Below, one piece after another: positions 4,246-30,768 of a stretch of 64,000 bases of DNA. The notes under the pieces were generated by a model. That model did no database searches and was not told the DNA's origin. It was given only the letters and a program-made list of their open reading frames with translations. A program made the position numbers and the translations under genes. Every line of letters begins with the position of its first letter. The stretch's first letter is position 1. Source of the stretch: an uncultured Gammaproteobacteria bacterium (lineage in GTDB: Bacteria > Patescibacteriota > Patescibacteriia > 2-01-FULL-39-33); contig CAZLFP010000005.1 of the NCBI GenBank assembly GCA_964558935.1, positions 20,667 to 84,666 of the forward strand, in the 5' to 3' direction.

Positions 4246-4261
4246 TAGTCATTGAACAAAG

Positions 4262-4285
4262 CACCCTGAAAAGGGTGTTTTGTTG
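4262..4285 (+). terminator. intrinsic terminator after tig
   Basis: caccct-gaaa-agggtg followed by TTTTGTTG. Confidence 0.55.
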
Positions 4286-4341
4286 TATTTGAAAATCTTA
4301 GTGAAAAGGATTAATATTAAGATAGGAAATAATTACATATT

Positions 4342-12286: not shown

Positions 12287-12467
12287 CTTTAGTTATTATA
12301 GCTAACTACTTGAAATTTTACAATCATTTATGTTATAACAAAGATTTTTATTTGCCAAAATTAGATTTTAGTGCTATCATAAAAGATAATAATATGTCAA
12401 AATGGGGATTAAGTTAAGAGTATGATTTAATCTTGTTTGAGTATTATTTTAACTAATTTAAGGCAAT

Positions 12468-13103: not shown

Positions 13104-13106
13104 CTT

Positions 13107-14504
13107 ATGCCTAGACCCAAAAAAACAACAGCGGCTAAACCGGCTGCTTCCAAAAGAATAAAGAAAAAAGCTGCTAAGCAACTGGCGACTGTAACTGGCA
13201 TGAGAGACATTCTGCCTCAAGATCAGCAACAGTGGCAATATATTCGACAAGCGGCTCAAAATATGGCTTATGCCTATGGCTATGGCAGAATAGATACTCC
13301 GATTCTAGAGAATGTGGAAGTCTTTGCACGAGGAGTGGGTAAACAAACAGATATTGTGGAAAAAGAAATGTTCTCTTTTGTGGATCAGGGTGGAGATCAT
13401 TTAAGTTTAAGACCTGAAGCCACAGCTTCGGTGGTCAGAGCATATATTCAGCATGGCATGTTGAATTTACCGCAACCGGTCAAATTCTTTTACATGGGTC
13501 CCATGTTCCGACATGAAAAGCCCCAGTCCGGTCGATATCGTCAATTTTACCAATTAGGCTTTGAAGCGATCGGTGAAAGTAATCCGGCTTTAGACTCTCA
13601 ACTTATTCTGTTGGGCTTTAATATTCTAGATGACTTAGGTTTGGATACTGTGATTCAGATCAACAGTTTGGGTTGTCCAGACTGCCGTGAAGAGTATCGC
13701 AAGGAACTGGTTAAATATTACAAGAGCAAATCCAAATTGTTATGCAACACTTGTAAAAACAGATTAACCAAGAATCCGATGCGGCTTTTGGATTGCAAGG
13801 AAGAACAGTGCCAAGCTTTAAGAGATGAAGCTCCTCAAATTTTAGATTTTCTAGATGATGAATGTAAGAATCATTTCATGAAAGTAATTGAATACTTGGA
13901 TGAATTGGATTTACCCTACGCCTTAAATCCATATATCGTCAGAGGTTTAGATTATTACACCAAAACCATCTTTGAATTCTGGTCAGTGGACGATGAGGTC
14001 GGTAAAAGCGCTTTAGGCGGTGGTGGTAGATATGATGATTTGGTTGAGATTATGGGCGGTAGGGAACATACTCCGGCTTGCGGTTTGGCTTTAGGAATCG
14101 ACAGATTGGTGGCCAAACTGAGAGAAAAGGATTTGCAAGTGCCGGAAGTATACCAGCCAGATGTGTTTTTGGCTCAATTGGGTGATGCCGCTAAAAAGAA
14201 AACTTTGGTTTTGTATGAAAGATTGAGAAAGAAAGGCATTAAAGTGTCTCAAGCTTTTTACAAAGATGGCTTAAAAGGTCAACTGAATTTAGCTAACAAG
14301 TTAAAGGTTAAATTCACTCTGATCTTAGGCCAGAAAGAAGTCGGGGACGGTACGATTTTGCTCAGAGACATGGAAGGCGGAGTTCAGGAAGTTATAGATT
14401 ATTCCAAGGTTGAGAAAATAATTCAAAAAAGGTTGGAAAAGTATCGGGAAAGCGAAACATTGGTGTCAGACGAGGACCAACCTGTTGAAGATAATAATAA
14501 ATAA
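13107..14504 (+). CDS. hisS: histidine--tRNA ligase
   Basis: Class II motifs (GMRDILP, FRHEKPQSGRYRQFYQ, GGGRYD) and C-terminal anticodon-binding domain. Lys-rich N-terminal extension of about 30 aa. Confidence 0.9.
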   Translation: MPRPKKTTAAKPAASKRIKKKAAKQLATVTGMRDILPQDQQQWQYIRQAAQNMAYAYGYGRIDTPILENVEVFARGVGKQTDIVEKEMFSFVDQGGDHLSLRPEATASVVRAYIQHGMLNLPQPVKFFYMGPMFRHEKPQSGRYRQFYQLGFEAIGESNPALDSQLILLGFNILDDLGLDTVIQINSLGCPDCREEYRKELVKYYKSKSKLLCNTCKNRLTKNPMRLLDCKEEQCQALRDEAPQILDFLDDECKNHFMKVIEYLDELDLPYALNPYIVRGLDYYTKTIFEFWSVDDEVGKSALGGGGRYDDLVEIMGGREHTPACGLALGIDRLVAKLREKDLQVPEVYQPDVFLAQLGDAAKKKTLVLYERLRKKGIKVSQAFYKDGLKGQLNLANKLKVKFTLILGQKEVGDGTILLRDMEGGVQEVIDYSKVEKIIQKRLEKYRESETLVSDEDQPVEDNNK

Positions 14505-14521
14505 AAACTATAGAAAGCGAG

Positions 14522-14764
14522 GTGAATTTTGTGGCTGAAGTTAAGCGTAAAAAAGGTGAAACCTTTGAATCATTAGTGAGAAGATTTAACAAAAAAATTC
14601 AACAAAGCGGTAGACTGCTTCAAACCAGAAAGATTCGGTATTACGAAGCTAAGAAGAATAAAACCGCTGTCAGATCAGCGGCTGCCAGACGAGACGAGAT
14701 CAGTAAAAAAAGAGATTATCTCAAAAAGATTGGCAAGCTGGTTGAAGAACCAAGACGTAATTAA
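14522..14764 (+). CDS. rpsU: ribosomal protein S21
   Basis: Small basic protein; pattern (V)AEVKRKKGETFESLVRRFNKK matches the S21 N terminus. GTG start: either 14522 or, more likely, 14531 with a GAGGTG SD upstream. Confidence 0.7.
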   Translation: MNFVAEVKRKKGETFESLVRRFNKKIQQSGRLLQTRKIRYYEAKKNKTAVRSAAARRDEISKKRDYLKKIGKLVEEPRRN

Positions 14765-14769
14765 TCATC

Positions 14770-15228
14770 ATGTCTTTAGAAAAACAGATTAATACTGAAT
14801 TAGTCCAAGCATTGAAAGATAAGGCAGAACTCAAGCTGTCTGTGTTGAGAATGGTGAGAGCTGCTTTAATCAACAAAAAAGTAGAGCAGAAGATGGATAA
14901 GTCTCAAGAATTGGATGACCAAGCAGTGATCGCGGTCTTAAAATCTGAAGTTAAAAAACGACAAGACTCTATTGCATCCTATCGTGAAGCCGACAGAATG
15001 GATTTGGTGGATAAAGAACAACAAGAAGTTGAAGTCATTCAAAACTATCTGCCGGCTCAGATGTCAGAGCAAGCTTTGCAGACCATGATACAACAAACCA
15101 TTCAAGAACAGGGAGCAAGTAGTCCGGCCGACTTTGGCAAGGTTATGGGAGCCGTTATGGCCAAGACTCAAGGCCAAGCGGACGGACAAACGGTCTCAGC
15201 TTTGGTAAAACAGTTATTAAGTCAATAA
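14770..15228 (+). CDS. yqeY: GatB/YqeY-domain protein
   Basis: YqeY-like N terminus (ELVQALKDKAELKLSVLRMVRAALINKKVE) and length of about 150 aa. Confidence 0.7.
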   Translation: MSLEKQINTELVQALKDKAELKLSVLRMVRAALINKKVEQKMDKSQELDDQAVIAVLKSEVKKRQDSIASYREADRMDLVDKEQQEVEVIQNYLPAQMSEQALQTMIQQTIQEQGASSPADFGKVMGAVMAKTQGQADGQTVSALVKQLLSQ

Positions 15229-15243
15229 TGATAATTTAAATTT

Positions 15244-18200
15244 ATGTTTTTAAAACGCCTTTTTCCCGTGCAAAGGTCGTTAAAAACTACCAAAAAAGTA
15301 ATGGCAGTTTGTCTTTTGGTGGTTTTTTTGTTTCTTACCCTGGGCTTGCCAGTGGTTTTAGCGCAAGGTACACCCGGTGATCCGTATGGCTTGCAAGCGA
15401 TTGAGGAAGACACGGTTTTTGCCCCGACTAATTTAATCGTCATTATTGCCAACTTAATTCGAATCTTCCTGGGTTTGTTGGGCATGATTGCGGTGTTGTT
15501 AATGCTGTACGCCGGTTATCTGTGGATGACGGCTGCCGGCAATCCCGAACAGGTTCAGAAAGCTCAGAGAATTATTAAGCAAACGACAGTTGGTATTATC
15601 ATTATCTTATCTGCTTTTGCAATTGTCACTTTTGTCTTGGGTATTTTTGGGGGCGGTACCACCACACCGGGAGAGAGGCCGATTCCCACTCCTCGGCCAC
15701 CTCTAACCCCTTGGGGTATTGGCAAGGGACCGATTGAGGATGTTTATCCTCGACCCGGACAAGATGATGTACCGATTAATACGGCGATTGTAGTCACGTT
15801 TAAGGATGCGATAAATGCAACTACCATTTGTAATGTCACGGGAGATAGTAGTTGTGACGGTGAAATAATGAAGAATGTTGAAATTTGCATGTTAGATGAG
15901 AATAATCAATGTGTGGATTCTGTTCATCCGGAAAATCAGTTTCAGGCTACAAATTTTGCAAATACAACAGTGACACAAACGGGTGACGGACGAACTTTCG
16001 TCTTTAACGTAGCTGCCGGTGGTAAGTATTTGGGTGTGGAAGACGGACGTGAGCGACCTTTCCAGGTAACGCTTAAAAATGGCATTCAAAACACGGCCGG
16101 TGAGGATATTTTCAGCGGTTTAGCCGGCAACCAGTTCGCCTGGAATTTTGAAACCAACGGTAATTTGGATTTGGATCCCCCGGAAATAGTGGCTTTTGAT
16201 CTGTATCCCGGTTTAGATACTGCACAAGATATTTATACAGAAGCCTCTCCCGCCACCAGAGCTCAGACCACTTTAGCTTTTTCTGGGGCACCGCAGGCCA
16301 ACCAAGCCGCCAAAGTGAATGGCGTGCCGTATACGAGTAGTAATTTTAGTCAAACTTTAACTCAAACAACACAGATACCGGGTGCGACTGTTTATTTTAG
16401 AAGTAATGCCGGTTTTAGCATTAACACGGGTGGTACAGATACGGTGACAGTAACGGTGACGGCCGGTAGTGCGACTAACCCTGAGACAGGCATTGCTGAG
16501 CAAGTCGAAATTTCTGTAGCTGGTAGCTTTTTAACGTTAAATGTTAGTAGTAATCGGGTGGTCTTGTCTGAAGGCAATAGTATTTTTTCCGGTGCCTACT
16601 TGGAAGGAAATTTTCAAGCTGGCGGAAGCTGGACTTTTCAGGCCACTCCGGCTGTTCAGGGAGACAGGATAACCATAGATAACGAAGATCGCTTTATTTT
16701 TGTGGAAGCGACTGAAAATCGGTCCAGTCTTCAAATCAATGATCAATCTTACGTGACTGTCAAAGCTACAGACACTGCTGGCAATCCCAGATATTTGGGG
16801 AATTTGGCTGCAGCTATTGCTAATCAAACCAGATTAGCAACTCGTGTAGATGGCAGTAGTGTGGTTGTAACCGCTCCGAATACTGGAGCAGGTGAGATTA
16901 GCGTTAGTCATGATGTTGTAGGTTTAACAGTAACGCCAACTCCAGGCACTGAGCGAGTGATTAACCAGCGAACTGTTGGACAACGAGATTTGCCTAGAAA
17001 CCATTTCTTTCAGATTAATTTCAATGAACCGGTTAACCCTGTATTTTTAGATGGAAACATTATAGTTACCATCAATGGAACTCCAGTTAGTGATGTTAGA
17101 TTGGAGTATTCCAATAATTACAAAACAATTGAAGTCTTACCTCCAGAGACAAACAAATGCGGCGTCAGCAACTGTGGTCGAGATATCTATTGCTGGATTT
17201 TAAGTCCACAACAAGATGCTTACCCGGCTTCAGTGGAAATCAAAGCAGCGGTTTTACAAACCCAAGCAGTTCTCGATGCAAATAATTTATGTTCAGATTG
17301 GGGAGGTTCGGTTGATACTTATGGCAGATGCTCGCGTAAGGTGGATTTGGAGTGTGCTGCCGATTGTGAAATGATCTACTATCCATTAGCCTCCTACACC
17401 GCTCCAGACGGTGTGGTGGACTTGGCTTTTAATTCATTTAACGGCAGTTTCAATACTTATGAGGATTATGATTTGGCTAAGACGGTTGGTATTGCCGAGG
17501 GTCAGTCTTGTGATAATTGCGTGGAAAACAGTAATGATGGAAAATCTGGTCGGAATGCTTATATGTTAAAATACAACCCCAACTACACTCCGTTGACTAA
17601 TAATATGAAAAATGAAAGCGGAGGGAGCGCTTATTACGGAGACAATTTCCAGTGGTCATTTTATATTTCTTCATTACTGGATAAGGAAGCCCCACTGATT
17701 ACTTCTGTGACTCCGTTATTGGGCGGAGAAAGCGATTTTAGAGATGAACCCATTGCTATTAATTTTAACAAAGTTATGCGCAGCCGGACCTTAAGACCTG
17801 GCTGGGATAAAGACACTGAACATCGGTATTTGGTGGTCGAAACGGTTTCAGCCGGTGCCCAATCTTTGGGCTATTGGATTAGTAAGTATAATCTGGATAC
17901 GGATGCGGATGATTTGGCGGATGAGACGCGGGTGGAAATTGAACATACTCCTTATGCAGTGGCTACAGAATATGCCAGTTTAGCCGGGTCTGGTTTGGAG
18001 TCCATTGGTCAGAATTGTTTTAAGCCGGGAGCCGGTCCCAAAGATACCAGTAATAATTGCCAATATAATCCTAGCGGTGGTTTATATCAGGGTTGTGTGG
18101 CGGTGAATGAAAGTAATCCGTCCTCCTATGGCCATTGGAATTGCGCTGATGTGGCTGGCTTGGTGGAAGGTGTTGAAATATGTGCAGCCAATGAAATCTG

Positions 18201-18354
18201 CGAACCGTTTGATGAAACTGGAGATGGTAGCTATGGTGGTAGCTGGATTATTACTTTAGATGCAGGGTGGAGAACAACTAATACCACCTGTAGTGATGAT
18301 ACTGACAGCTGCCAGGGCTGTTGCTTTGGTCGATGTGTGGCCAGTGGATCATAA
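15244..18354 (+). CDS. giant secreted Cys-rich surface protein (1036 aa) with N-terminal VirB2/TrbC-pilin-like membrane hairpin
   Basis: Signal peptide, then two hydrophobic helices flanking a YAGYLWMTAAGNPEQVQKAQ loop (aa about 60-135). Long Thr/Asn/Gly-rich extracellular region ending in the Cys cluster CSDDTDSCQGCCFGRC. Confidence 0.7.
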   Translation: MFLKRLFPVQRSLKTTKKVMAVCLLVVFLFLTLGLPVVLAQGTPGDPYGLQAIEEDTVFAPTNLIVIIANLIRIFLGLLGMIAVLLMLYAGYLWMTAAGNPEQVQKAQRIIKQTTVGIIIILSAFAIVTFVLGIFGGGTTTPGERPIPTPRPPLTPWGIGKGPIEDVYPRPGQDDVPINTAIVVTFKDAINATTICNVTGDSSCDGEIMKNVEICMLDENNQCVDSVHPENQFQATNFANTTVTQTGDGRTFVFNVAAGGKYLGVEDGRERPFQVTLKNGIQNTAGEDIFSGLAGNQFAWNFETNGNLDLDPPEIVAFDLYPGLDTAQDIYTEASPATRAQTTLAFSGAPQANQAAKVNGVPYTSSNFSQTLTQTTQIPGATVYFRSNAGFSINTGGTDTVTVTVTAGSATNPETGIAEQVEISVAGSFLTLNVSSNRVVLSEGNSIFSGAYLEGNFQAGGSWTFQATPAVQGDRITIDNEDRFIFVEATENRSSLQINDQSYVTVKATDTAGNPRYLGNLAAAIANQTRLATRVDGSSVVVTAPNTGAGEISVSHDVVGLTVTPTPGTERVINQRTVGQRDLPRNHFFQINFNEPVNPVFLDGNIIVTINGTPVSDVRLEYSNNYKTIEVLPPETNKCGVSNCGRDIYCWILSPQQDAYPASVEIKAAVLQTQAVLDANNLCSDWGGSVDTYGRCSRKVDLECAADCEMIYYPLASYTAPDGVVDLAFNSFNGSFNTYEDYDLAKTVGIAEGQSCDNCVENSNDGKSGRNAYMLKYNPNYTPLTNNMKNESGGSAYYGDNFQWSFYISSLLDKEAPLITSVTPLLGGESDFRDEPIAINFNKVMRSRTLRPGWDKDTEHRYLVVETVSAGAQSLGYWISKYNLDTDADDLADETRVEIEHTPYAVATEYASLAGSGLESIGQNCFKPGAGPKDTSNNCQYNPSGGLYQGCVAVNESNPSSYGHWNCADVAGLVEGVEICAANEICEPFDETGDGSYGGSWIITLDAGWRTTNTTCSDDTDSCQGCCFGRCVASGS

Positions 18355-18385
18355 TAAGCAAGTAATTATATATACTTAATTTGGA

Positions 18386-21300
18386 ATGAAGAGAAGAGGT
18401 GTTAACAATTTATGGAGGCCAATATTTGCCTTGGCAATTATTGGTGTGTTGTTATTCAGCTTGCCTGTTTTGGCCGAAGGAGGTGACGTTGATCCATATG
18501 GTTTAGGTCAAATTGAACAGCAAACGGTTTTTACAGACACCGGCCTGCTTGAGATCATTGCCATGTTGATTAATATCTTCATGGGTTTGTTGGGCATGAT
18601 TGCTGTCATTTTAATGATTTATGCCGGTTATTTATGGATGACGGCCGGGGGTAATCCCGAAAAGGTGGAAAAAGCCAGGATGATTATCCAAAGAGCTGTA
18701 ATTGGCTTAATTATTATTTTTTCGGCTTGGGCGATCGTGACTTTTGTCTTCTATTCCTTGGGCGTGGCAGTCGGTGATGGTGGCAGACAGTCTTGTAATG
18801 AGGAAAATCCTTGTCCGCCCGGTTACCAATGTGTTGATGGCAGATGCAACAGAATACCGGATTACAATTTTAGAACCAGAGAAGGTGAGTTAACTTATAT
18901 TTCCGGTGTGCGATCTCAATCTTTAGACTGGTCCAGATCAACCAGTCGTTATACTAGTTTGGTGCCTGTGCCGCCAACAGCTGATTTCCAGGTCAGAGGC
19001 TATGCTTTTAAACGTAATGAGATAATTGCGCTATTAGCTTTATATGGTGGTTTAGATGAACAGTCTTTAAATAACTTGGGTACTTATCCCATTACCATTT
19101 CTGAAACTCCCAGTACAGAAGTAGAAGAGTGGAGGGGCGTGGATTTGTCTGCTGTGCCAGTTGGTGAAAGCATCTATGTCAAGAATAGGGCTAATTCGCT
19201 TAATCCGGTAAGTGATTTACAGAGTTCTTTTGAATCTGATCTTTTAACTTTACGTGTGATAAATCAGCATTGTTTCAATGGTGTTTTAGATGGTGATGAA
19301 ACAGAAATCGATTGTGGTGGCAGCTGCGGAGCCTGTGCAGGTCAGAGTTGTCGCACTTTAGAGGATGATACTTGCAGTGATGCTAATTGCCGGTCAGGAG
19401 TGTGTGGACCGGATTGTGTTTGTGTAACTGAACCAACCATTGTTTTGGTCGTAGAGGATGACGGCGCTCCCGGTAATTACATTACCATCTATGGTCATCA
19501 TTTTGGTCATGAACAGGGTCAAGTTCATTTTTATACTACCGACGGAACTCTGTCAGCTACAGTAAATTGGACTGCTTTCCCGGACGAGTGTTCAAATACA
19601 TGGCAAACCGGTCATATCATTGCTGTTGTGCCGGCTTTATCTGCAGGTAATTACCAAATAGTGGTTGAGACCAGTGATGGTTTACTGAGTGAGGGTTATG
19701 CATTCGAAGTTAATACGGTTAACAGACCGGGTGTATGTACTATTCAAAACACCACTCTATCTCAACCCGGACAGTTGGTTTACGGTTTTGGTCAATCTGA
19801 AAATGAAGTTAAACTGATTGGCAACCAGTATCCGACCACCGTTGATGGTAATAATGAAGTACAGTGGTTATACCAAACATATAGTCAACAAACAGGTGGG
19901 TATGTAGATGATATCTACAACAGCCCAAGTAATACCTGGTCAACGGTTAATGAAGCCTTCGATGTAGTACCGGTTGGTCAGGATGGTCGGACAGCAGTTA
20001 GGGTATCTTTGGAACCAACCAAAAACAGTAATCCATATCCGTTCTTAATCTCTGCGGGTGGAGTTGGTGATCCATGTGGTGATCCTGAAGAACAGGTCTG
20101 TGCAGCAGCTGAAGTCTGTCAGCCTGGCTTGGTGTGCGATTTTGAGGATTGCACTTGTCAATTGGGTGAAGCTGAAACTTGCGGTAATGGACAAATTGAT
20201 CAAGGTGAGCAGTGCGATAGCTCAGCTGAAGCGATCTACAGTCAATTAGATGATGATAACAATCCGGATTGTTCTTTGTATGGAGATTATTTACCGGGTA
20301 GAAATGTTACCTGTCAGCCAAATTGTACAGTTAATGTCAATCCTTGTTTGCTAGCGTCTTTAGCCGGTAAGCCGTCTCAACACAATATTTATTCCTGGGC
20401 CTTTTTGAATATGTCTGGAACAGATATACCAAGGCCTGGTTTGTGCGGTAACAATATTTTAGATGATGGTGAAGATTGTGAAGATGTGGATGGCAGTCTT
20501 ACGTATCGAGGGGACAGAAGCACATGTCAGGCTTACGGCTTTAACAGTGGTACTTTGGCTTGTTCCAATTGTCAGTTAGACACTCAGAATTGTGAAGGAG
20601 CTTCCATTGGAGATAAGGCTTCTTCCCATGCCATTTACGGTTGGATTATCGGACACACGGGAGATTATAATCCAGGTGAGGAAGAGCCAACAATAGTTGA
20701 AGATTGTACTAGAGAAAGAACCTGCCGACCAGGCGCCAGATTGCCCAGTCCCACCCCTTGGAGTGAAGGCTGGACGTCAGCCACCAATATCAATGTTGAA
20801 AATCCACTGGCCTGTTTAGATGCCATTATTCTAGCTCGCTTTAGTTTGCCCATGGATGTGGATACCATTAATCCGGACAATATTAAAGTGTTAAAGAGAT
20901 TAGCGACTGGTGGTTGGCAAGAAGTTGCAGGTGATGTCGTTGCGGATTTGGATAGTGATAAGATGATTATCGGTAGTGATAACAGTGATATGGATAATGA
21001 TTATTTCAGATTCATTCCTACCACTAATTTAGAGCCTAATGCTTGGTACAAGGTGGTGGTCAGACAAACCGTTGAAAGTTTATCTGGCAGACAGATGAGA
21101 TTAAACCGAGTTGACCAAGCCAGAGTGAATGATCGCGAGTGTAATGTAAATGGCATTACAGATGCGGCTTACTGTTGGAATTTTCAAACTCGTAGTGCCG
21201 GGACATGTAATCCGGGCTGTGTGGAATGTTCACCGGATCCGCATACTATGTATTGGCAAGGTGCTACCACCAAGTATTTAGCTGATGTTGATAGTCAAGA

Positions 21301-24300
21301 TAATGTGTGTCTGTTGCTTAAAACCGGTAATACTGATTGGAATTGGTCTACAGATGATGAACCGACTGATGTTAAAGTTAGTTTGGGTTCGACCAATAAT
21401 TTTTATAACACAGGTACGGCCATTGATGAAAACATTTTTGACTCACCCGGCTATACCAAAATTATTACCCAATTGCGATCTTATACAGGCAAGGAAGATT
21501 TCTGCAGGGCTAGGGTGGATTTCACCAATCCGGTGGTGGTTGAAGATTCTTCCTGTTTGTATGGTAATATCCAAAGTCCTAGTCCTTGGATTAGTTCTGA
21601 TGATGCTTGCTTAAACGCTATGGTGTCAGCGCGTTTTAGTCGGGATATGACTGATGAGACTTTGAATTCTGGGAATATTTTAGTCTACCAATGTTCTGAT
21701 TTTGATTGTGATCTTACCGGCTTAACACCTATGACATACGGCCAAGTTGAAATTTTTCAATATTCTCATGTCTTGGATGACGTGACTGCCCAGCAGATTA
21801 TTGATCTTGGAGAACCGGAAGATGACGAGTTGCCTGAAGGTTTTTATATTCAACCTATAACCGGAGGCAATCCGGACGGCAACTTCAGATTTACACCCAA
21901 TACCTGGTACCGGGTGGTGATTAAAGGAGATACCGAAGGTGTCAGAGGTTCAACCGGCGGTAAGCTATTGAGAACCAATTACGCTCATGATGCTGACGGG
22001 GAAGTAAATGATTACACTTGGAAGTTTAAAACAGCCGGCAATGATTGCCAAGTAGACAGAGTGACAGTTACACCTCAGAAAAGGAGTATGTCAGCTGCTG
22101 GACAGAACCAGATTTACCATGCTTTGTCAGTGGCAGCCAATTGTAATTTGTTGAATTCAGCTTCTTTTAGCTGGGCTTGGAGATCTTTATATGAATTGGA
22201 TGATGACCGAGATGCGAATGATCCTGATTATGGCAATGCCAGTGATGTGGCTAGAGTTTGTCCTTACAACTCCAACGCTTTATGTGATTATACAGCTCTG
22301 ACTTCTGAGCAGAGCAGTTGGTTGACTCGGTCTAAAGTTCGAGTCTTCGGTATAGTTGACAGTGATGTTTATATTAAAGCACGAGCACTGGAGACCGGTC
22401 CTCAGTCAGCAGTTGCCGGCTACAATCCATTGGATCCGGAGATGGGTGATAAGTGGGATTACGGTACTTTGAGAATTGGTTACAGCGATCTTAAGGTCAT
22501 CGGTCATTCACCGGACAGGTTGACTTGCAAGATTCCAACTGCTGGAAATTATTCGGATTATGATATTCGAGTCAGATTTAACATTGACGTTGATACCGGT
22601 TCAATTAAACCCGGTGTTAATACTTTCTTGTATCAATGCGATCCAGAAAATAACGACTGTCATCCGGGGACTGAGCTTCAAACAGTTGATTTAACTCGTC
22701 TTAACACTACTTTGTATGCCAAAGAAATTGTCTTAAATCCTAACCAACAATTATCGCCTTACACCAGCAATACATATCGTTTGTTAATTCAAGGCGGTCC
22801 TAACACAGATCGTCCAATCGCTTTCAATGGCAAACGTCTCATGACTTTCAATTACAACAGTGCCGGCGGAGGTGCCGGTGAAGAGTGTGAACCTGATATT
22901 TTACCCTGGTCAGATTTTAGTGGTGTTTGCAATAATTGTATGTTAGACAGTAGTAAAAATTTATGCACTTATGCCAATGGCAGTTTTGCTGAGTGTCAGA
23001 ATAGTCTGCCCAATTCGTCTTTAGATTATTGTAATGATAAATGTTTTAACACCGGTAATGAGAATCGAGCTGCTTGTGGTGATGATTATGTCAATGTCGG
23101 TTATGAACAATGCGATGATGGCAACATTATTTCCGGTGATGGTTGCAGTAATGTTTGTTTATGGGAAGGAGCCGGTTCAGTAGCTGGCTCGGTCTGTGGT
23201 AATGGTGAACAAGAAGAGGGAGAAGCTTGTGATGATGGAGATCTGGATAATATTAATGAGTGTAACAATAATTGCTTGTTGACTGAAACTCCGGAACCGG
23301 GCTCTTTGCCGTACAGGCAGTGTCGTATTGAAGATAACTTTACAGTCTCACTGGGCGCTAATATTACTCCTCCCGACATTGGCGTGGCTCAACCGTTTGC
23401 TGGCACACCGCTCGACGATTACCGCAGTTATTATGTCAACAGTTCATTGTTTGGTAATAATAGGCATACTCCCTGGGGAGCTAAAATAATTGGCGGCCAG
23501 GTCATGATCGAGGCTCAAGGCAATGAAGGCAGTTCCGCCTTAATGACGGAAACTGAGGTTGACAGTGACCATTATCTTGTTAAAACCCAGATAATCGCCA
23601 ATGGTGCAATCACCAGTACAGATGATATTGGTTTGGCTTTTGGTTACCAAGATGAAAATAATTTTTGGTTGTTGAATTGGGCTGATGTTGGTTATCCTGG
23701 AGACAGAGCAGACACTTACCGCAGATTTAGATTAATCAACCAGTTTGGCCAAGTTGCAATTACTGCCACACCTTTCAATGTTGATGCACCTAATCATAAC
23801 TTTACTCTGTCGGTTGAAGTAATTAATTTTAGCGATGGAGCTCTTATCAAATGCTTTCGAGACAATACTCTACTGTTTAGTCATGAGGTTGACAGACGAG
23901 TGACCGGTCAGGTCGGGTTGTATGCCAGAGATCCGGATACTTCAGTCTTCTTTAATTTCTTAGATATCATTAATTTGGACTCGCAGTCCAACGACTGGTG
24001 TAATACTTTTGTCCAAACCCCAATTTGTGGCAATGGCACGGTTGAAACCGGCGAGGATTGTGATGACGGCAATACGGATTCCGGAGATGGCTGTAGCAGT
24101 AGATGCTTGCATGAGGGTTCTGTGAATGCCGTGTGTGGAGATGGCTTGGTTCAAACCGGCCAGGATGACAGTTATTCCTGGGTCTTTATCGTCGATAATA
24201 CGGAAGAAGCATGCGCTAGTGTTGAACCGGAAATTGTGATGGGACCATGTCCGAATGCTATTTGGAGAATTAAGACTAAGTTAGTTGATGAAAATGGCGT

Positions 24301-26350
24301 TTCAACCGGCATTGAGAGTTTGAATGTTAAAATTGAAGCTTCCAATCTGACTGTTACACACCAAGGTTGGTGGCCTAAGTTTAAGAATTGGTTTTGGGGT
24401 TTGTTTGGTCAATCCGCCGTGGCAGTCGATTATCCAAATCCTTTATTTGACTACACTTTTACTGCCACAGAATTAAGTGGTGATCTGCGCCAAACGCCTT
24501 CCATTTCTGGCAGCAGCGACGAGATATTGGGTTATCGTCAACAGGAAGAAGACGGTAATGTGTACTATGTGTTAAACATTATTCCGGGTCAGAATTGGAC
24601 CATAGATCGTCATTACCGTATTACCACCACAGATCAGGCTGACAATCAAACAGCAGTCGAAACTTATATTGAACCGGATATTTGTTTAATAGATGATCTG
24701 GAAGTCAATGTTTGGCCTAAAGGTCAGCTGGCTTTAGAAGATACATTTTTCTGCGCCGAAGCTTCGGGTTGTGATAGAGATCAGGATACTGCGACACCGG
24801 GTAACCAGCATATTTACCGAATTTGGGCCACCAATGGTAGACTGGGAGACAGAAAATCTTTCCTAAGATCTACTTCAACTTGGGAATTGAGTGTGATTCC
24901 TGATCTAGCTAATGTTTTAACTCGGCAAGATGCGAGTGCCACGACTTACCAAGGCGATCACTGGATTACGGCACAGGGTAGAACAGGAGGGCGAGCTTCC
25001 TTAAGAGTGACTGCCGGCAATCCTCAAACCAATGATGATGATTACACTCAGTCCATATATTTATTAGTCTTCCTATGTGACAATCCTTGGCCAGATCCAG
25101 ATAATTTCCCTTTCATTGACAGTGATAATAACTGTACCGGAGGTGACTGCGTTAACACCAATTTTTCCTTAGGCTATTGCCGTGATGCCGGCGAGCCTGG
25201 TTTTGCCGATGATCTGCCCAGATTGGATGAAAATGTCAGAGTTGTGGGTATGAATCCTGATTTAAATATTGTTAAGCAGATGTTCTTCCAAAAAATGGAT
25301 GATTCAGTTAATCCAGCAGTTGCCACTGGGGATACCATTGGCCTGAGAGTAATTAACAACAATAATTACTATAATCCAAGAACCTGGTTTGTCTCTCAGT
25401 TCAACCAAGATCCGGGTGCCATGTCGACCATAGATGGTTACCAATCCGTTGCTCAAGGTCCGACCAGCTATATTCACGCTGCAGATTTGGTGAATAATTG
25501 GAATACTGAAAAAAAGGCATACAGCACTAATTATGTTTTAACTTATACTCAGACCGGGGATGAAGACATTGTTAATATCTATAACCAGATGTTGAATAAT
25601 TTATTTTTCAATTACGGTATTCCAGAACAAGGTGGCTTGCCCACCATGGGTAGTTGTAAAGGCACTAGCTTTGCTTGTTGGTCTGATGCTGATTGCGACA
25701 GTCTGGGTCCCAACGCCTATTGTACTTCAGATAAAGCCAAGTTAACTCGAGATTTAAGAAGATTGGCAGATATGCAGGATATTGATTTAAGCTTGATGCA
25801 GTATAAGTCAGTTGAGCGTTGTTCCGGTTTGCCAACCAGATTGTGCGATAACCAAGATGATTGTGAGGGTTATGGTATGTGCGGCAATTTCTATCCATTG
25901 TTGCCCTCCGGCACTTATGTTCCAGCCAGAAGTATTTCAGTTTGGCCATCGTGGCAGGCAACTTTGGGTAATGCGCTGGGCAGGGCTTTGCCGGTTGACC
26001 CGATTAACCAATTCAGTGGCTGCAGTAGTCCGTATGAGGCGCAAACTTGTTGGGCTGAAAGTCTGAAGTCTTTTAATTGTTCAGCTGTTGCAACAGCTCT
26101 TGCTAATCAGTCAACCTATAATTACATTTATTTGTCTTCCAGACCGGATGAGACCACCTTGTCTAATGTTAGGTATTTATTGGCCAATAATGAGTTCTAT
26201 CCGAATTACAATACTTTGTGGCAGTCATTACCTCTAAACTTACGCAACTATACTGATATAGTGACTCATACTTTATTTACAGATTATGGTGCTTTCTTTA
26301 TTGATGACATCAATGGTACCTTTAACTGTGCCCGCGATTTAAGTTTATAA
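18386..26350 (+). CDS. giant secreted surface protein (2654 aa): pilin-like hairpin, at least 6 Myxococcus-type Cys-rich repeats, LamG/ConA-like domain
   Basis: N-terminal domain paralogous to the preceding gene (about 60% identity over about 100 aa). Repeats of form CGNGxxxxGExCDDGNxxxGDGCSxxC at several sites. LamG-like segment (DHYLVKTQI...FWLLNWADVGYPGDR...). Confidence 0.75.
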   Translation: MKRRGVNNLWRPIFALAIIGVLLFSLPVLAEGGDVDPYGLGQIEQQTVFTDTGLLEIIAMLINIFMGLLGMIAVILMIYAGYLWMTAGGNPEKVEKARMIIQRAVIGLIIIFSAWAIVTFVFYSLGVAVGDGGRQSCNEENPCPPGYQCVDGRCNRIPDYNFRTREGELTYISGVRSQSLDWSRSTSRYTSLVPVPPTADFQVRGYAFKRNEIIALLALYGGLDEQSLNNLGTYPITISETPSTEVEEWRGVDLSAVPVGESIYVKNRANSLNPVSDLQSSFESDLLTLRVINQHCFNGVLDGDETEIDCGGSCGACAGQSCRTLEDDTCSDANCRSGVCGPDCVCVTEPTIVLVVEDDGAPGNYITIYGHHFGHEQGQVHFYTTDGTLSATVNWTAFPDECSNTWQTGHIIAVVPALSAGNYQIVVETSDGLLSEGYAFEVNTVNRPGVCTIQNTTLSQPGQLVYGFGQSENEVKLIGNQYPTTVDGNNEVQWLYQTYSQQTGGYVDDIYNSPSNTWSTVNEAFDVVPVGQDGRTAVRVSLEPTKNSNPYPFLISAGGVGDPCGDPEEQVCAAAEVCQPGLVCDFEDCTCQLGEAETCGNGQIDQGEQCDSSAEAIYSQLDDDNNPDCSLYGDYLPGRNVTCQPNCTVNVNPCLLASLAGKPSQHNIYSWAFLNMSGTDIPRPGLCGNNILDDGEDCEDVDGSLTYRGDRSTCQAYGFNSGTLACSNCQLDTQNCEGASIGDKASSHAIYGWIIGHTGDYNPGEEEPTIVEDCTRERTCRPGARLPSPTPWSEGWTSATNINVENPLACLDAIILARFSLPMDVDTINPDNIKVLKRLATGGWQEVAGDVVADLDSDKMIIGSDNSDMDNDYFRFIPTTNLEPNAWYKVVVRQTVESLSGRQMRLNRVDQARVNDRECNVNGITDAAYCWNFQTRSAGTCNPGCVECSPDPHTMYWQGATTKYLADVDSQDNVCLLLKTGNTDWNWSTDDEPTDVKVSLGSTNNFYNTGTAIDENIFDSPGYTKIITQLRSYTGKEDFCRARVDFTNPVVVEDSSCLYGNIQSPSPWISSDDACLNAMVSARFSRDMTDETLNSGNILVYQCSDFDCDLTGLTPMTYGQVEIFQYSHVLDDVTAQQIIDLGEPEDDELPEGFYIQPITGGNPDGNFRFTPNTWYRVVIKGDTEGVRGSTGGKLLRTNYAHDADGEVNDYTWKFKTAGNDCQVDRVTVTPQKRSMSAAGQNQIYHALSVAANCNLLNSASFSWAWRSLYELDDDRDANDPDYGNASDVARVCPYNSNALCDYTALTSEQSSWLTRSKVRVFGIVDSDVYIKARALETGPQSAVAGYNPLDPEMGDKWDYGTLRIGYSDLKVIGHSPDRLTCKIPTAGNYSDYDIRVRFNIDVDTGSIKPGVNTFLYQCDPENNDCHPGTELQTVDLTRLNTTLYAKEIVLNPNQQLSPYTSNTYRLLIQGGPNTDRPIAFNGKRLMTFNYNSAGGGAGEECEPDILPWSDFSGVCNNCMLDSSKNLCTYANGSFAECQNSLPNSSLDYCNDKCFNTGNENRAACGDDYVNVGYEQCDDGNIISGDGCSNVCLWEGAGSVAGSVCGNGEQEEGEACDDGDLDNINECNNNCLLTETPEPGSLPYRQCRIEDNFTVSLGANITPPDIGVAQPFAGTPLDDYRSYYVNSSLFGNNRHTPWGAKIIGGQVMIEAQGNEGSSALMTETEVDSDHYLVKTQIIANGAITSTDDIGLAFGYQDENNFWLLNWADVGYPGDRADTYRRFRLINQFGQVAITATPFNVDAPNHNFTLSVEVINFSDGALIKCFRDNTLLFSHEVDRRVTGQVGLYARDPDTSVFFNFLDIINLDSQSNDWCNTFVQTPICGNGTVETGEDCDDGNTDSGDGCSSRCLHEGSVNAVCGDGLVQTGQDDSYSWVFIVDNTEEACASVEPEIVMGPCPNAIWRIKTKLVDENGVSTGIESLNVKIEASNLTVTHQGWWPKFKNWFWGLFGQSAVAVDYPNPLFDYTFTATELSGDLRQTPSISGSSDEILGYRQQEEDGNVYYVLNIIPGQNWTIDRHYRITTTDQADNQTAVETYIEPDICLIDDLEVNVWPKGQLALEDTFFCAEASGCDRDQDTATPGNQHIYRIWATNGRLGDRKSFLRSTSTWELSVIPDLANVLTRQDASATTYQGDHWITAQGRTGGRASLRVTAGNPQTNDDDYTQSIYLLVFLCDNPWPDPDNFPFIDSDNNCTGGDCVNTNFSLGYCRDAGEPGFADDLPRLDENVRVVGMNPDLNIVKQMFFQKMDDSVNPAVATGDTIGLRVINNNNYYNPRTWFVSQFNQDPGAMSTIDGYQSVAQGPTSYIHAADLVNNWNTEKKAYSTNYVLTYTQTGDEDIVNIYNQMLNNLFFNYGIPEQGGLPTMGSCKGTSFACWSDADCDSLGPNAYCTSDKAKLTRDLRRLADMQDIDLSLMQYKSVERCSGLPTRLCDNQDDCEGYGMCGNFYPLLPSGTYVPARSISVWPSWQATLGNALGRALPVDPINQFSGCSSPYEAQTCWAESLKSFNCSAVATALANQSTYNYIYLSSRPDETTLSNVRYLLANNEFYPNYNTLWQSLPLNLRNYTDIVTHTLFTDYGAFFIDDINGTFNCARDLSL

Positions 26351-26373
26351 TATATAAATCATAACTTAAGCAT

Positions 26374-27564
26374 ATGTTTGACGATCAAATGAAGAATCAG
26401 CCAGATAAAACAGGCCAACCACCAGCTGATTTACCTAAGGTGGAAGATATTTTTGCTGACTCAGAAACAAAAGCACAATCCAGCAGTCCTTTTAAGCCAG
26501 TACAGCCTCCCACGCAGCCACCAGCTCAGTCTGGTCAAGTTCAACCAACTCAGCCTGCAAAAAGTGCAGTAGATCAAATGCCTGACGGTATCAGTCAAGC
26601 CGAATTGTTTGGAGGTCGTTCAATTTTGGAAAATAAAGTGCTAGTGGCTGCTATGCTGGTCATTGCGGCTGTGGTTGTTGGTACCCTGGTCTGGTTTGGT
26701 TATGTGTGGTTTACCAATCGGACAATAGAGCCAGTTCCCGAGCCAAGTTCACAAACGGTTGTTACAACTGAACCCTCAGTCATTCCCCAGCCTGAACCAG
26801 CCCCTGCTCCCACTCCAGAACCAGAGCCGGAACCAGTTATGGCTAAAGACAGTGATTTTGATGGATTAACAGATGACCAAGAGAGAGATTTAGGTACAGA
26901 TCATTTGAAAGCAGATTCAGACGGAGATGGTTTAATCGATTACGCTGAGGTAAATATTTATCTAAGCAATCCTCTGGATGTGGATACGGATGATGACGGG
27001 TATAATGATGGTAAAGAGGTGACTAATGGCTTTGATCCAACCAGGCCGGGTAATGCTTTACTGCCTGCTTTTGACCAGAATGGCAATTTAAAACCTTTAC
27101 CGATTCCAACTCCTGATGAACCAGATTACAACGTTTTTAGTAATGAAACGTACAGTATCTATTTTGAATATCCCAAAGACTGGCCAACACCAAAGTTGGA
27201 AGTTAAACAGTTTAAAGATACTTATCCTACCATGCCAACCAATTGGTATTTGGTGACTGGTCCAGACTTGGAATGTCAGGATGAAGGTTGTATTCTAACC
27301 AGATTATACATCAATGTTTATCCTAAACTGGATTATTTGCGAGCCATAGATGATTTAAACAATATGCAGTTTGTGTCCGAAGTGTCTGAAGGTAATGTTA
27401 ACGGCATGCAAACAATTTCTTACAAAGAATCCGGAATGGCCGGGTCTAAGAAGACTATGATTTTTGGACCTAATTATTCTTTAGTGCTTAACACTTCGAT
27501 GCTGAACATAGATGATCGTTTTGATGCGTATATGCAAATTATTAATTCTCTTAATTTAAATTAG
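26374..27564 (+). CDS. single-pass membrane protein with Pro-rich linker and TSP3-like Asp-rich Ca-binding repeats
   Basis: Cytoplasmic Pro/Gln-rich N terminus; one TM ([24 protein letters not shown]); [15 protein letters not shown] linker; [12 protein letters not shown]...[12 protein letters not shown]...[12 protein letters not shown] repeats; C-terminal globular domain. Confidence 0.6.
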
Positions 27565-27569
27565 TAAGT

Positions 27570-28961
27570 ATGGATGACAATAACCAACAACCCAAACCAC
27601 AGCCAAACAATGTTGAGGATCTAATAAAGCAGCCGAGTACTAAGTCGGATGTGTATGTCATGCCAGAGAAATTCCATCCTAAACAAGCGCAGTCATCGAA
27701 TAAAGGCTTAATCATATCCATTGTAGTACTACTCTTGGTCATGCTGCTTAGTGGTACTTATTTAATCTATGTTTATGTAGTTCAACCTCAAATGCAGACT
27801 CAACCGGTGCAAGTCGTTCAGCCTACTCCTGAACCGGAACCGGAACCTGAACCGGAACCGGAACCGGAACCGGAACCTGAACCGGAACCGGAGCCTGAAC
27901 CGGAACCGGAACCGGAGCCTGAACCGGAACCAGCTCCTAAACCAACCGGTGAAATTACTGCCAGTCAAGATTCAGATCAAGACGGTTTAACTGATCCAGA
28001 AGAAGTTCTTTTCACCACTGATCCCAATTTGCCAGATACTGATGGTGATGGCTATTTGGACGGTACTGAAGTTACCAATGGTTTTAGTCCGTCTCAAGCC
28101 GGAGGAAGTCAGGCAGACATGTTGCCAGCCATGCCATATATCACTCAGGTGGAAACTAATTTCAGTAAAAATAATCTCAAATTATATTATTTTAAAGATT
28201 GGCAAATGAATCTATTTCCGGATAATTACGAGATTAGATTGACGATCCCAACTACAGGTGAAATGATAAAGGTGACAGTTAGATCTAATCCAGATAATTT
28301 GTCAGCCACCAATTGGTATTTAACCAACAATTCTTCAGTTACTTTAAGTCAGTTAACACGTATTGAAACAGATGAGTTAACCGGCATTTATTCACCGGAT
28401 AAGACTGAGGTCTATTTAACCGATGAAGACAGACAGAAATTCTATATCTTTGAATACCAGATAATGGATGACAGCAAGGAGCTGAGATATCCCAATATTT
28501 TAAGATACATGATAAAGAATTTAGAGATTGTAGCGGATGAGACTCAATCCGTGCCTGCTGTTGAACAAGTAGAATTAGATTTAGCTTTTGATAAATTTTT
28601 TAAAGATTGGATTGTTGCTTGGAATGACCGAGACGTAGAAACGCTGGTTAACATTTATGGCTATGGTGAAAGTCAGATTGAGGCGACAGAGGACAAGGCG
28701 ATTTGGCAGTACCAAAAGTATGAATTGTACCAAAATGAGGTGACTGAGTCACAGGGTAATTTTGACATTAAAGCGTATTATGTAGTGACTGATAATGACG
28801 GACAGTTTCAGATTTTGATTGTTAACGGTGGATATCTGGAGGATGGCAGCTCAGCCTATATTGGATCATGGCAGGTATATCCGAGTGAAGGCAGTCCGAT
28901 GTCGATTTTTGATTCTCAAGCGGCAGCTGAGCAGAAGATTGATGATTTAATCTCCTTATGA
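27570..28961 (+). CDS. paralogous single-pass membrane protein with (Pro-Glu)n linker and TSP3-like repeats
   Basis: Same architecture as 26374-27564: TM ([24 protein letters not shown]), (PE)~18, [12 protein letters not shown]...[13 protein letters not shown], distinct C-terminal domain. Confidence 0.6.
27829..27937 (+). repeat. in-frame hexanucleotide tandem repeat (cc[tg]ga[ag])~18 encoding (Pro-Glu)n
   Basis: Directly visible near-perfect GAACCG/GAGCCT tandem units inside the CDS. Confidence 0.9.
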
Positions 28962-29407
28962 TTGATTTAGACATTAATCGTCAAGTTAATTGTAATTTAA
29001 CTGACGGTCAATTACTTGGCATAGCCAATGTCTTTGCTCAGCTGGCTAAATTGAAAGGCAATAGCCATGTTTCATTGGCTTTGGTGACAGACAGGGAAAT
29101 CAGAAAATGGAACAAATTGTATCGAGGAGTGGATAAAGTAACAGATGTTTTGAGTTTTGTTGAGCAGGATTCGTTTTTAGATCCGTCGGTCAAGGATAAT
29201 TATCTGGGTGAAATTATTATTAGTCTTCCCAGAGCTAAAAAGCAGGCTCAGCAGTATGGATGTAGTGTAAAACAGGAGATTACCCGTTTATTAGTGCATG
29301 GTTTGTCTCATTTGGCCGGTTATGAGCATGAAAATGTTTCTGCTTACCGTCAGAAAAAAATGGAAAAATTGGAAGATTTGGTGATGGCTAGACTTGGATT
29401 TTTTTGA
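28958..29407 (+). CDS. ybeY: rRNA maturation endoribonuclease YbeY
   Basis: [11 protein letters not shown] zinc-binding motif; length of about 150 aa. ATGA overlap with the upstream surface-protein gene. Confidence 0.85.
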
Positions 29408-29519
29408 ACACATTATTTATTCGTTTTATTGATTATAAACATATTGATAGAATTGAGTCTTTCCTTTATAATAAATAAGTAACCAAGACATTAGGTGTGT
29501 CTTTAATTATCATAATCTC

Positions 29520-30767
29520 ATGTTAAAAGATAGTCTCATAACTGGCTTAGATATTGGATCTACCACAATTCGTATGGTAGTGGGTCAGAAAACCAAGAAA
29601 GATGACCGGCTTAAGATTATTGGAGCTAGCGAAGCACCGGCTCAAGGCATTAGCAAAGGAGTAGTCACCAGCGTGGAGGACGCTGTCTCCTCAATTTCTG
29701 ATGCCTTGGAAAAAGTTGAACGGATGATCGGCCAACCCGTGGAACATGCTTGGGTGGGTATCTCCGGAACGCATATTATTGCTCAAGAAAGCAAGGGTGT
29801 GGTTGCCGTTTCAAAAGCTGACGGAGAAATAAGAGCTGAAGATGTTGAACGGGCGATTGAAGCGGCCAGGGCAATTGCGACACCACCGAATTACGAAATT
29901 CTGCATGTCATTCCTAAGAATTTTTCAGTTGATTCGCAGACGAACATTAAAGATCCAATCGGCATGACCGGCATTAGACTGGAAGTTGAAACTCAGATCA
30001 TTCAAGGTTTGACTTCCCAGATTAAGAATTTAACCAAGTGCATTTACCGGACTGGTTTGGATATAGATGATTTAGTGTTGGCTGTCTTAGCCAATGCTGA
30101 GAGCGTTTTAACCAATCGTCAAAAGGAGTTGGGGGTGGCGGTGGTTAACATTGGGGGAGCCACAACCAGTTTGGCCGTATTTGAAGAGAGTGATGTTCTG
30201 CATACGGCCGTATTGCCCATTGGTTCAGAATATATCACAAATGATATCGCAATTGGTCTTAGGATTTCCATAGATACGGCTGAGAAAATTAAGGTTAGAC
30301 AAGGCAGTAGTTTGCCTAAAGATTTTAAGAAACATGATGAGGTTAGTTATTCTGAAGTGAGCGGTACGGAAGAAGGTTTTTTTTCCAAAAAAGAAGTGGC
30401 TGAGATTATTGAAGCTCGAGTTGAAGAAATCATGAACCGCATTGACAAGGAATTGAAAAAGATAGGTAAATCCGGCATGCTGCCAGCCGGGATCGTCTTA
30501 ACTGGATCAGGGGCAAAATTAGAAGGCATTGTTGAGACGGCCAAGCAGTCTTTAAGATTGCCGGTTTCCTTAGGCCAGCCTCAAGAATTGGTTTCTAATT
30601 TGGATAAAATATCAGACATGTCATATACAACTGCCGTTGGCTTGGTTTTATGGGGAGCTCAAATGCAAAAAGGAGGTGGCCTGGGTAAACTGCCCAGTTT
30701 GCGTTTTGAAAGCATTTCTAAAGCAACCAATCAAATCAGAAGTTGGTTTAAACATTTATTACCTTAA
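29520..30767 (+). CDS. ftsA: cell division protein FtsA
   Basis: Actin-like ATPase (GLDIGSTTIRMVVG); size 415 aa; adjacent to ftsZ. Confidence 0.85.
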   Translation: MLKDSLITGLDIGSTTIRMVVGQKTKKDDRLKIIGASEAPAQGISKGVVTSVEDAVSSISDALEKVERMIGQPVEHAWVGISGTHIIAQESKGVVAVSKADGEIRAEDVERAIEAARAIATPPNYEILHVIPKNFSVDSQTNIKDPIGMTGIRLEVETQIIQGLTSQIKNLTKCIYRTGLDIDDLVLAVLANAESVLTNRQKELGVAVVNIGGATTSLAVFEESDVLHTAVLPIGSEYITNDIAIGLRISIDTAEKIKVRQGSSLPKDFKKHDEVSYSEVSGTEEGFFSKKEVAEIIEARVEEIMNRIDKELKKIGKSGMLPAGIVLTGSGAKLEGIVETAKQSLRLPVSLGQPQELVSNLDKISDMSYTTAVGLVLWGAQMQKGGGLGKLPSLRFESISKATNQIRSWFKHLLP

Positions 30768-30768
30768 T

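Follow-up and report, generated by a model that had tools for sequence, protein, structure and literature searches.

A conserved four-gene cassette of pilin-hairpin giants and small TSP3-repeat proteins as a candidate cell-contact apparatus in Patescibacteria

We analysed a four-gene cassette in a stretch of 64,000 nucleotides (hereafter the window; contig CAZLFP010000005.1 of assembly GCA_964558935.1, positions 20,667 to 84,666), which is deposited under the name of an uncultured Gammaproteobacteria bacterium and placed by GTDB in the Patescibacteriia lineage 2-01-FULL-39-33. The cassette encodes two large proteins with a VirB2-like hairpin near the N-terminus (g1, 1036 amino acids (aa), 15244-18354; g2, 2654 aa, 18386-26350) and two small membrane proteins with TSP3 repeats (g3, 396 aa, 26374-27564; g4, 463 aa, 27570-28961). 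All four are open reading frames (ORFs) on the plus strand, and their coordinates and translations agree with the initial annotation of the window, of which they fill 21% (13.7 kb in total). We regard the cassette as a strong candidate for the cell-contact apparatus of a whole Patescibacteria class, and we lean towards a reading in which the four products would form a hetero-oligomeric complex, anchored by the hairpins, for adhesion to or contact with a host cell or a surface. New in this work are the homology of the hairpins to a pilin-like gene located near VirB4 on a Bacillota plasmid, in a cassette that has no type IV secretion system (T4SS) genes nearby, the co-variation of the g1 and g2 hairpins within genomes, and a predicted PsbP/LpqN-like fold in the unannotated domain of the giant g2, which is shared with g4.

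Pilin-like hairpins of the two large proteins

As judged from hydropathy and sequence inspection, g1 and g2 both start with a leader; next comes a pair of hydrophobic helices, joined by a short charged loop, TAGGNPEKVEKARMIIQR. In g1 the hairpin lies at aa ~62-136 (15427-15651, plus strand), with a K/R/Q-rich loop between the helices; hydropathy gave the segments 57-99 and 109-140, Pfam the stretch 66-131 and the NCBIfam model NF045849 the stretch 63-134. The g2 hairpin covers aa 53-121 (18542-18748, plus strand). Both reach the gathering score of 26.6 bits of the Pfam family T4SS_pilin (PF18895), g1 with 32.5 bits and g2 with 43.6 bits, and both are hit by NF045849, the Mbov_0395 family (E 7e-9 and 2e-8; 33.5 and 35.3 bits), at scores under its equivalog cut-off of 40 bits. 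Furthermore, the hairpin profile aligned with a pilin-like protein of the NF045849 family from a Pontibacillus plasmid (hhalign Prob 97%, E 1e-10), the gene of which is situated 4 kb from a gene for a VirB4-like ATPase, and the motif Y-x-G-[FY]-x-[WY]-[MI]-T-[AS]-x-G-[DN]-P is common to the hairpins and the Mbov_0395 family. The VirB2/TrbC-like hairpin claimed in the initial annotation is thus upheld by PF18895 and by the Pontibacillus protein, and on these profile matches the hairpin is assigned to a pilin-like family associated with T4SS. With PF04956, the classical TrbC/VirB2 model, g2 scored 15.4 bits against a cut-off of 27.9 (E 0.021) and g1 gave no match; the comparison with PrgF of pCF10, a single-sequence target, returned a collinear alignment that was not significant (Prob 0.9%, E 0.06), and a sequence search of the PDB with the hairpin profile yielded only noise and no solved pilin.

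Signal peptides and topology were judged from hydropathy, inspection and the positive-inside rule. The leaders of g1 and g2 both end in VLA, with cleavage of g1 predicted after aa 40. The hairpin loop holds the positive charges (KVEKARMIIQR), with acidic or Cys-rich segments to both sides, so that by the positive-inside rule the domains behind the hairpin are probably extracellular. Unlike the small pilins that consist of a hairpin only, g1 and g2 devote just ~75 residues each to it.

Over their first ~138 residues g1 and g2 are 55% identical (E 1e-36), with no significant similarity elsewhere. The earlier description of the four genes as two pairs of paralogs therefore stands for g3 and g4, whose profiles align at Prob 99.2%, and for g1 and g2 in the hairpin only. 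Across genomes, the hairpins of g1 and g2 from the same genome are on average 62% identical, compared with a mean of ~50% for orthologous hairpins between genomes, and in 24 of 47 genomes the best match of the g1 hairpin was the g2 hairpin of its own genome. Recent gene conversion as a source of this likeness was considered for the window and discarded, as the DNA identity is only 63% and the codons differ for half of the residues that are identical.

Ectodomains, partner proteins and a shared domain

Behind its hairpin g1 carries a Big_5 Ig-like domain (Pfam) and then a lineage-variable ectodomain; its orthologues, which are 30-42% identical, are found at this position in the relatives too. 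With 99 Cys (3.7%) g2 deserves the earlier label of a giant Cys-rich protein, which fits g1 only moderately (25 Cys or 2.4%, clustered in the last 400 aa). Pfam and NCBIfam matched T4SS_pilin, TIG, Big_5, DUF4215 and TIGR02232 in g2. On the plus strand its IPT/TIG domain lies at 19463-19708 (aa 360-441; 24.7 bits, cut-off 20.9) in a conserved block of aa 250-500, its Big_5 Ig-like domain at 20819-21094 (aa 812-903; 35.9 bits) in a conserved block of aa 750-1300, and its Cys-rich acidic repeats of the type CGNG..GE.CD (TIGR02232/DUF4215) at 23072-24160, flanking a block of g2 without family match. TIGR02232 reached 57.5 bits in three stretches and DUF4215 was placed at aa 1870-1907, with motifs at 1604, 1881 and 1917. 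Within g2 a 21-bp tandem repeat (2.8 copies, 20945-21001) codes for a stretch rich in Asp, Ser and Asn.

We found 134 homologues of g2 with the architecture pilin, Big_5, TIG and DUF4215, which are 2000-4500 aa long (mostly 3000-4500), and most orthologues have a tail of ~900-1100 aa that is absent from the g2 of the window. Orthologues of g1 and g2 add LamG, VWA, FG-GAP, FN3 and beta-propeller modules, and public annotations call such proteins "IPT/TIG", "Ig-like", "LamG-like jellyroll" or "cysteine-rich repeat". In a Komeilibacteria locus (L009) the g1 orthologue has a beta-propeller ectodomain (Vgb_lyase/NHL-like), and an extra gene for a 1142-aa Cys-repeat protein (DUF5667 and DUF4215; 19004-22432 of that locus) separates the giant from the TSP3 gene. 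Scans with Pfam and NCBIfam detected no S-layer, SLH or other lattice-protein domain, and none with PHROGs included revealed a toxin, hydrolase or peptidase domain in g1 or g2; the PHROGs scan returned nothing relevant. RTX/HemolysinCabind repeats were likewise absent by Pfam, and the neighbours are housekeeping genes and not those of a type I secretion system.

Apart from the hairpin, the most conserved part of the giant is a domain of ~380 residues at aa 2210-2589 (25013-26152, plus strand), which defines the family and has no Pfam model. It is marked by the motifs LCxNPWP, YCRD, WPSW and DPxN, and a profile built from it retrieved 1715 cluster representatives in 1.84 billion proteins, 1308 of them at E<=1e-30 and nearly all of them 3000-4000 aa long when complete. 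Its core at aa ~2257-2411 (25154-25618, plus strand) is homologous to the ectodomain of g4 (hhalign Prob 96.8%, E 2.6e-10), as a plain hidden Markov model search agrees, and both are predicted to adopt a PsbP/Mog1/LpqN/DcrB-like fold, as judged from the structural similarity of a confident model. The Pfam model PsbP_2 (PF18933) did not reach its gathering score in these proteins: it touched only the C-terminus of g3, with 14-15 bits against a cut-off of 27, and matched neither g4 nor the g2 domain.

Both small proteins show, by hydropathy, a cytoplasmic N-terminus, a single hydrophobic segment, a low-complexity spacer and TSP3 repeats, in line with the type-II topology and TSP3-type repeats proposed for them before, for which Pfam and the repeat motifs also speak. 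In g3 the conserved N-terminus MFD...EDIF is followed by a transmembrane helix at aa ~88-112, a short P/E/A-rich spacer and three TSP3 repeats (26848-27009, plus strand, aa 159-212; PF18884 43.7 bits, cut-off 25). The C-terminal ~165 aa of g3, which include the weak PsbP_2 match, are specific to the window, the orthologues being 213-289 aa long without this extension. In g4 the cytoplasmic motif VYVMPEKF and a transmembrane helix at aa ~46-71 precede a (PE)n spacer, encoded by 16.8 copies of GAACCG (Tandem Repeats Finder; 27831-27931, plus strand), two TSP3 repeats with DxDxDGxxD motifs (27969-28061, plus strand; PF18884 15.8 bits, under the cut-off of 25) and the PsbP/LpqN-like domain at aa ~185-325 (28122-28544, plus strand); the last ~130 aa are again window-specific and were modelled, at low confidence, as beta-sheet. 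Of the (Pro-Glu)n spacers originally ascribed to both small proteins, that of g4 is thus a real repeat and that of g3 is not. The cytoplasmic motifs VYVMPEKF and MFD...EDIF are common to the orthologues of g4 and g3, respectively. At the equivalent place the g4 orthologues carry N-, T- or P-rich low-complexity stretches, and it appears from this alignment that only the function of the spacer, and not its sequence, is conserved. From their family the TSP3 repeats can be expected to bind calcium. Compared with the orthologues at four of the loci, the arrangement in the window suggests a lineage-specific redistribution of ectodomain modules among g2, g3 and g4.

Genomic setting and distribution

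The cassette lies between yqeY (14770-15228) and ybeY (28958-29407), both on the plus strand and identified by Pfam. The start of ybeY overlaps the stop codon of g4 in an ATGA, as can be read directly in the sequence, and both flanks named in the initial annotation hold. Upstream, signal peptidase I, HisRS, S21 and YqeY form a plus-strand backbone at 12468-15228 (Pfam, synteny), from which a LytR-CpsA-Psr gene diverges, and 3' of g4 the order is YbeY, FtsA, a membrane protein without annotation and FtsZ (Pfam). The gaps from yqeY through g1, g2, g3 and g4 to ybeY measure 15, 31, 23, 5 and -4 bp. A promoter scan placed its top site at 12352-12380, before the signal peptidase gene, and another strong promoter-like site at 29444-29472, after ybeY and before ftsA, with no convincing plus-strand terminator between 12352 and 29444. 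The spacing is operon-like, one tightly spaced unit with the housekeeping genes.

To survey relatives, a hairpin alignment was run against one genome per species, by which at least 557 relatives were found, and the 80 best loci were examined. Among these, 54 showed the housekeeping context from yqeY to ybeY, and in 43 of the 54 two large fusions were visible. Five contigs with g2 homologues, including Buchanan-, Uhr- and Komeilibacteria, share one gene order, namely LytR / signal peptidase-HisRS-S21-YqeY, a pilin fusion of 600-1075 aa, a giant pilin fusion, one or more TSP3 proteins, a g4 orthologue of ~340-540 aa, and YbeY-(DgkA)-FtsA-FtsZ, and BLAST confirmed the positional orthology of all four cassette genes. 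All named homologues are from Patescibacteria, the nearest from Buchananbacteria. Because divergent relatives have positional orthologues of all four genes in the interval from yqeY to ybeY, the cassette is to be seen as native and not as an island, and its vertical inheritance in Buchanan-, Uhr-, Komeili-, Falkow- and Magasanikbacteria, a group which we take to correspond to the GTDB class ABY1, is strongly supported by these comparisons. This bears out the earlier view of a module native to a conserved backbone. As to base composition, which had also been called native, the flanks carry no island signature, and the guanine-cytosine content of the cassette is mildly higher than theirs, by 2-4 points (0.42-0.45 versus 0.38-0.41). 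Integrase, transposase and tRNA genes are missing from the annotated flanks, as are direct-repeat borders of the genomic-island type. The length of the cassette amounts to ~14-20 kb in genomes of ~1 Mb, e.g., chromosomes of 1.08 and 1.00 Mb.

While the setting is conserved, the cassette proteins are not: between the nearest relatives they are 31-42% identical, versus 68-84% for the flanking HisRS, FtsA and S21. Such fast divergence is expected for proteins that are exposed externally, as these are predicted to be.

A different arrangement was met at 20 of the 80 best loci, where arrays of 5-12 small PF18895-type pilin genes (110-490 aa) occur, with hairpins ~41% identical to those of the cassette. 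At the three array loci that we inspected for it no VirB4 gene lay beside the pilins, and the arrays adjoined dnaA/dnaN and a class A penicillin-binding protein, or polysaccharide and O-antigen-ligase genes. VirB4, VirB6 and VirD4 were also absent among the annotated ORFs of the window, from 15 kb upstream to 35 kb downstream of the cassette, and within +/-10 kb of the cassette in the relatives examined. At six loci the giant is represented by two consecutive ORFs, a hairpin part of ~1340-2200 aa and then a part of ~400-1180 aa in which the conserved domain lies; the gene may truly be split there, or the cause may be a frameshift or a faulty assembly. Many loci with typical Patescibacteria genes stem from third-party MAG records that are titled 'uncultured Gammaproteobacteria bacterium', apparently a placeholder or mislabel.

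Besides the cassette, an ORF at 30637-31569 (likely start near 30769) lies between ftsA and ftsZ, is matched by neither Pfam nor NCBIfam and resembles a type-II membrane protein with a basic N-terminus, one transmembrane helix and a P-rich spacer; its domain opens with the motif 'YPANW', reminiscent of the domain start of g3 and g4, and an unannotated gene for 379 aa occupies the same position in a Buchananbacteria contig. We considered this ORF as a fifth member of the cassette and left it out, the alignment with the g4 family reaching only Prob 26% in hhalign. Elsewhere in the window a 588-aa ORF at 1083-2849 has an N-terminal hydrophobic segment and no match in Pfam or NCBIfam, and ComEC is encoded by two adjacent ORFs, one with DUF4131 and Competence (38743-40098) and one with the metallo-beta-lactamase domain (40105-40992).

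Possible roles and comparison with known systems

In the adhesion or contact complex that we favour, the Sec route would export g1 and g2, with removal of their signal peptides, and the two-helix hairpin of the VirB2/PF18895 type would keep them in the cytoplasmic membrane, with the N-terminus outside, the positive loop inside and the C-terminus outside. Their multi-domain ectodomains of ~900 and ~2500 aa would reach outwards, joined to the cell by a short flexible tether. As the hairpins co-evolve within each genome, we infer that they pack as a hetero-oligomer or that the same partner handles both. The low-complexity spacers would raise the TSP3 repeats of g3 and g4, and the PsbP/LpqN-like domain of g4, off the membrane, stiffened by calcium, and g3 and g4 may act as accessory or scaffold subunits, which either dock on the giant via the shared PsbP-like module or share its ligand. 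Adhesion or contact is the role we propose because the ectodomains are adhesin-type, disulfide-rich, mosaic between lineages and fast diverging, and because essential adhesins and large Cys-rich surface proteins have precedents in the candidate phyla radiation (CPR). The modules themselves are ordinary adhesin-type ones (Ig-like, TIG, Cys-rich), and profile searches gave them no ordinary S-layer identity; they fit the attachment proposal without proving it. Several observations weigh against this picture. Three of the loci have a single pilin-fusion gene, so that a heteromer of g1 and g2 is not obligatory everywhere; the similarity of the hairpins within a genome could stem from old gene conversion instead of co-assembly; and the site in a cluster of translation and division genes suits a structural role in the envelope equally well.

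The alternative that survives best, although we judge it unlikely, is a display on pili, where a VirB6/VirB4 machine encoded elsewhere would extract g1 and g2 into a VirB2-like pilus of small pilins, sparsely or as a tip layer. It would account for the match of the hairpins to a pilin family with a T4SS-linked homologue, and the termini-out topology of the VirB2 type, known from established pilus structures and from the PrgF model (10.64898/2025.12.18.695078), would allow a fusion at the C-terminus to lie on the exterior. Moreover, the small-pilin arrays described above occur in the same lineage group, and T4SS components, which occur widely among Patescibacteria, are essential in a cultivated species (PMC12102498, PMC12857230, PMC11665869). 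However, VirB4, VirB6 and VirD4 are missing from the stretches examined around the cassette, the three sampled arrays have no VirB4 beside them, the cassette hairpins are closer to each other than to those of the array pilins, and a homopolymer of 110-280 kDa subunits would be sterically implausible at the density of a conjugative pilus. Pilins that are cyclised, such as VirB2 of the Ti plasmid and TrbC of RP4, could not bear a C-terminal fusion, which also counts against display on pili. A related and more speculative idea, to which we attach still less weight, is a T4SS-derived 'harpoon' in a monoderm, in which the hairpin would have been repurposed, throughout this class of ultra-small cells, as an extraction handle for giant adhesins and g1 and g2 would be mounted together at the tip of a conjugative-type pilus or sparsely along it. 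Their co-evolving hairpins would then be the interface, the TSP3/PsbP-like partners would serve in membrane docking or assembly, and the host-contact device would be encoded apart from the T4SS, in a housekeeping operon beside the division genes.

An envelope scaffold, i.e., a constitutive structural outer layer or spacer that is S-layer-like or linked to the wall or divisome and is no host-contact device, seems to us similarly doubtful. A single-copy, class-wide cassette in a housekeeping unit near LytR-CpsA-Psr, signal peptidase, ftsA and ftsZ would suit it, the relatives of the PsbP/LpqN/DcrB-like fold include lipoproteins of cell-envelope biogenesis, and the conserved cytoplasmic motifs of g3 and g4 could contact cytoplasmic machinery. 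Yet S-layer and SLH-type matches are lacking in Pfam and NCBIfam, the high Cys content and the mosaic of adhesin-type modules that vary between lineages (LamG, VWA, FG-GAP, TIG) are atypical of proteins that form lattices, and the adjacency to ftsA and ftsZ may be plain inherited backbone synteny.

TSP3 repeats also occur in polymorphic-toxin-type proteins, and the giant might be a contact-dependent lytic or toxic effector acting on the host envelope, with the small PsbP/Tsi3/TplEi-like proteins as immunity-type protectors. We think this very improbable: Pfam, NCBIfam and PHROGs detected no toxin, hydrolase or peptidase domain in g1 or g2, the likeness to immunity proteins goes no further than a very common fold, and the giant itself contains the domain that is supposed to confer 'immunity'. 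Finally, a recent island or an artefact of assembly or gene calling, for which the elevated guanine-cytosine content and the very long genes in metagenome-derived sequence might speak, can practically be dismissed, as many divergent genomes, assembled independently, have these genes at the same site, a 97.7-kb NCBI contig is recorded with identical proteins, over 1300 cluster representatives contain the conserved domain and no mobile-element or tRNA genes are present in the flanks.

A central question about Patescibacteria is by what means they attach to other cells and exploit them, and most lineages are without candidate contact machinery. In a cultivated Saccharibacterium surface adhesins, type IV pili and the T4SS are essential (PMC11665869). 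The cassette, which is conserved throughout a large and uncultivated class, joins two topics that have been discussed apart until now, VirB2-like pilins and giant Cys-rich surface proteins, and offers concrete targets in the hairpin pair, in the unannotated domain and in the shared PsbP-like module. In agreement with the initial annotation, which knew of no function for this combination of domains, our literature search, with incomplete coverage, found no publication describing it, be it the fusions of pilin hairpins with giant ectodomains, the yqeY-ybeY cassette or the TSP3/PsbP-like partners.

Among known systems, the TSP3 surface proteins (PF18884), such as CglD and MtsD of Myxococcus, have the DxDxDGxxD repeats in common with g3 and g4 and their models gave weak local matches; the likeness is confined to the repeats, whereas g3 and g4 are small type-II proteins with cytoplasmic motifs of their own and, in g4, a PsbP-like domain. 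The tip and minor-pilin adhesins of type IV pili (PilY1/PilC, PilV-type) and the giant flagellins offer only a functional analogy, that of a filament module with a large outward binding domain, and belong to unrelated families with different assembly machines. Large Cys-rich extracellular proteins proposed for attachment have been reported in Peregrinibacteria, another CPR lineage (Anantharaman et al. 2016, PMC4736985), and the accessible part of that report describes no pilin-type anchor, chromosomal cassette or TSP3 partners for them.

The closest comparisons are with pilins. VirB2, TrbC, TraA and PrgF of pCF10 follow the same plan as the hairpin (leader, two transmembrane helices, short charged loop), and VirB2-like PrgF pili have lately been proposed for Gram-positive systems (10.64898/2025.12.18.695078); unlike g1 and g2, none of these pilins has a large C-terminal domain. 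In the Mbov_0395 family (NF045849), known from Mycoplasma integrative conjugative elements and Bacillota plasmids, the hairpin is homologous, but the members are ~150 aa long and are encoded in conjugation loci beside a VirB4-like ATPase, a setting that g1 and g2 do not share. For Patescibacteria themselves VirB2-like pilins and pilin arrays of 2-11 genes have been described (Quinonero-Coronel et al. 2025, PMC12102498; Wang et al. 2023 as cited there). With PF18895, a signal peptide and a two-helix hairpin, g1 and g2 resemble these pilins and would formally make up a two-gene 'array'. The described pilins are, however, small and many are near virB4, and the accessible parts of that paper hold no mention of pilin-giant fusions, whereas the hairpins of g1 and g2 carry ectodomains of 900-2500 aa and the pair, invariably accompanied by TSP3 partner genes, keeps its place between yqeY and ybeY without a T4SS gene in the vicinity. 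Such very different fusions may be included when 'VirB2 pilins' and 'pilin arrays' are counted in Patescibacteria.

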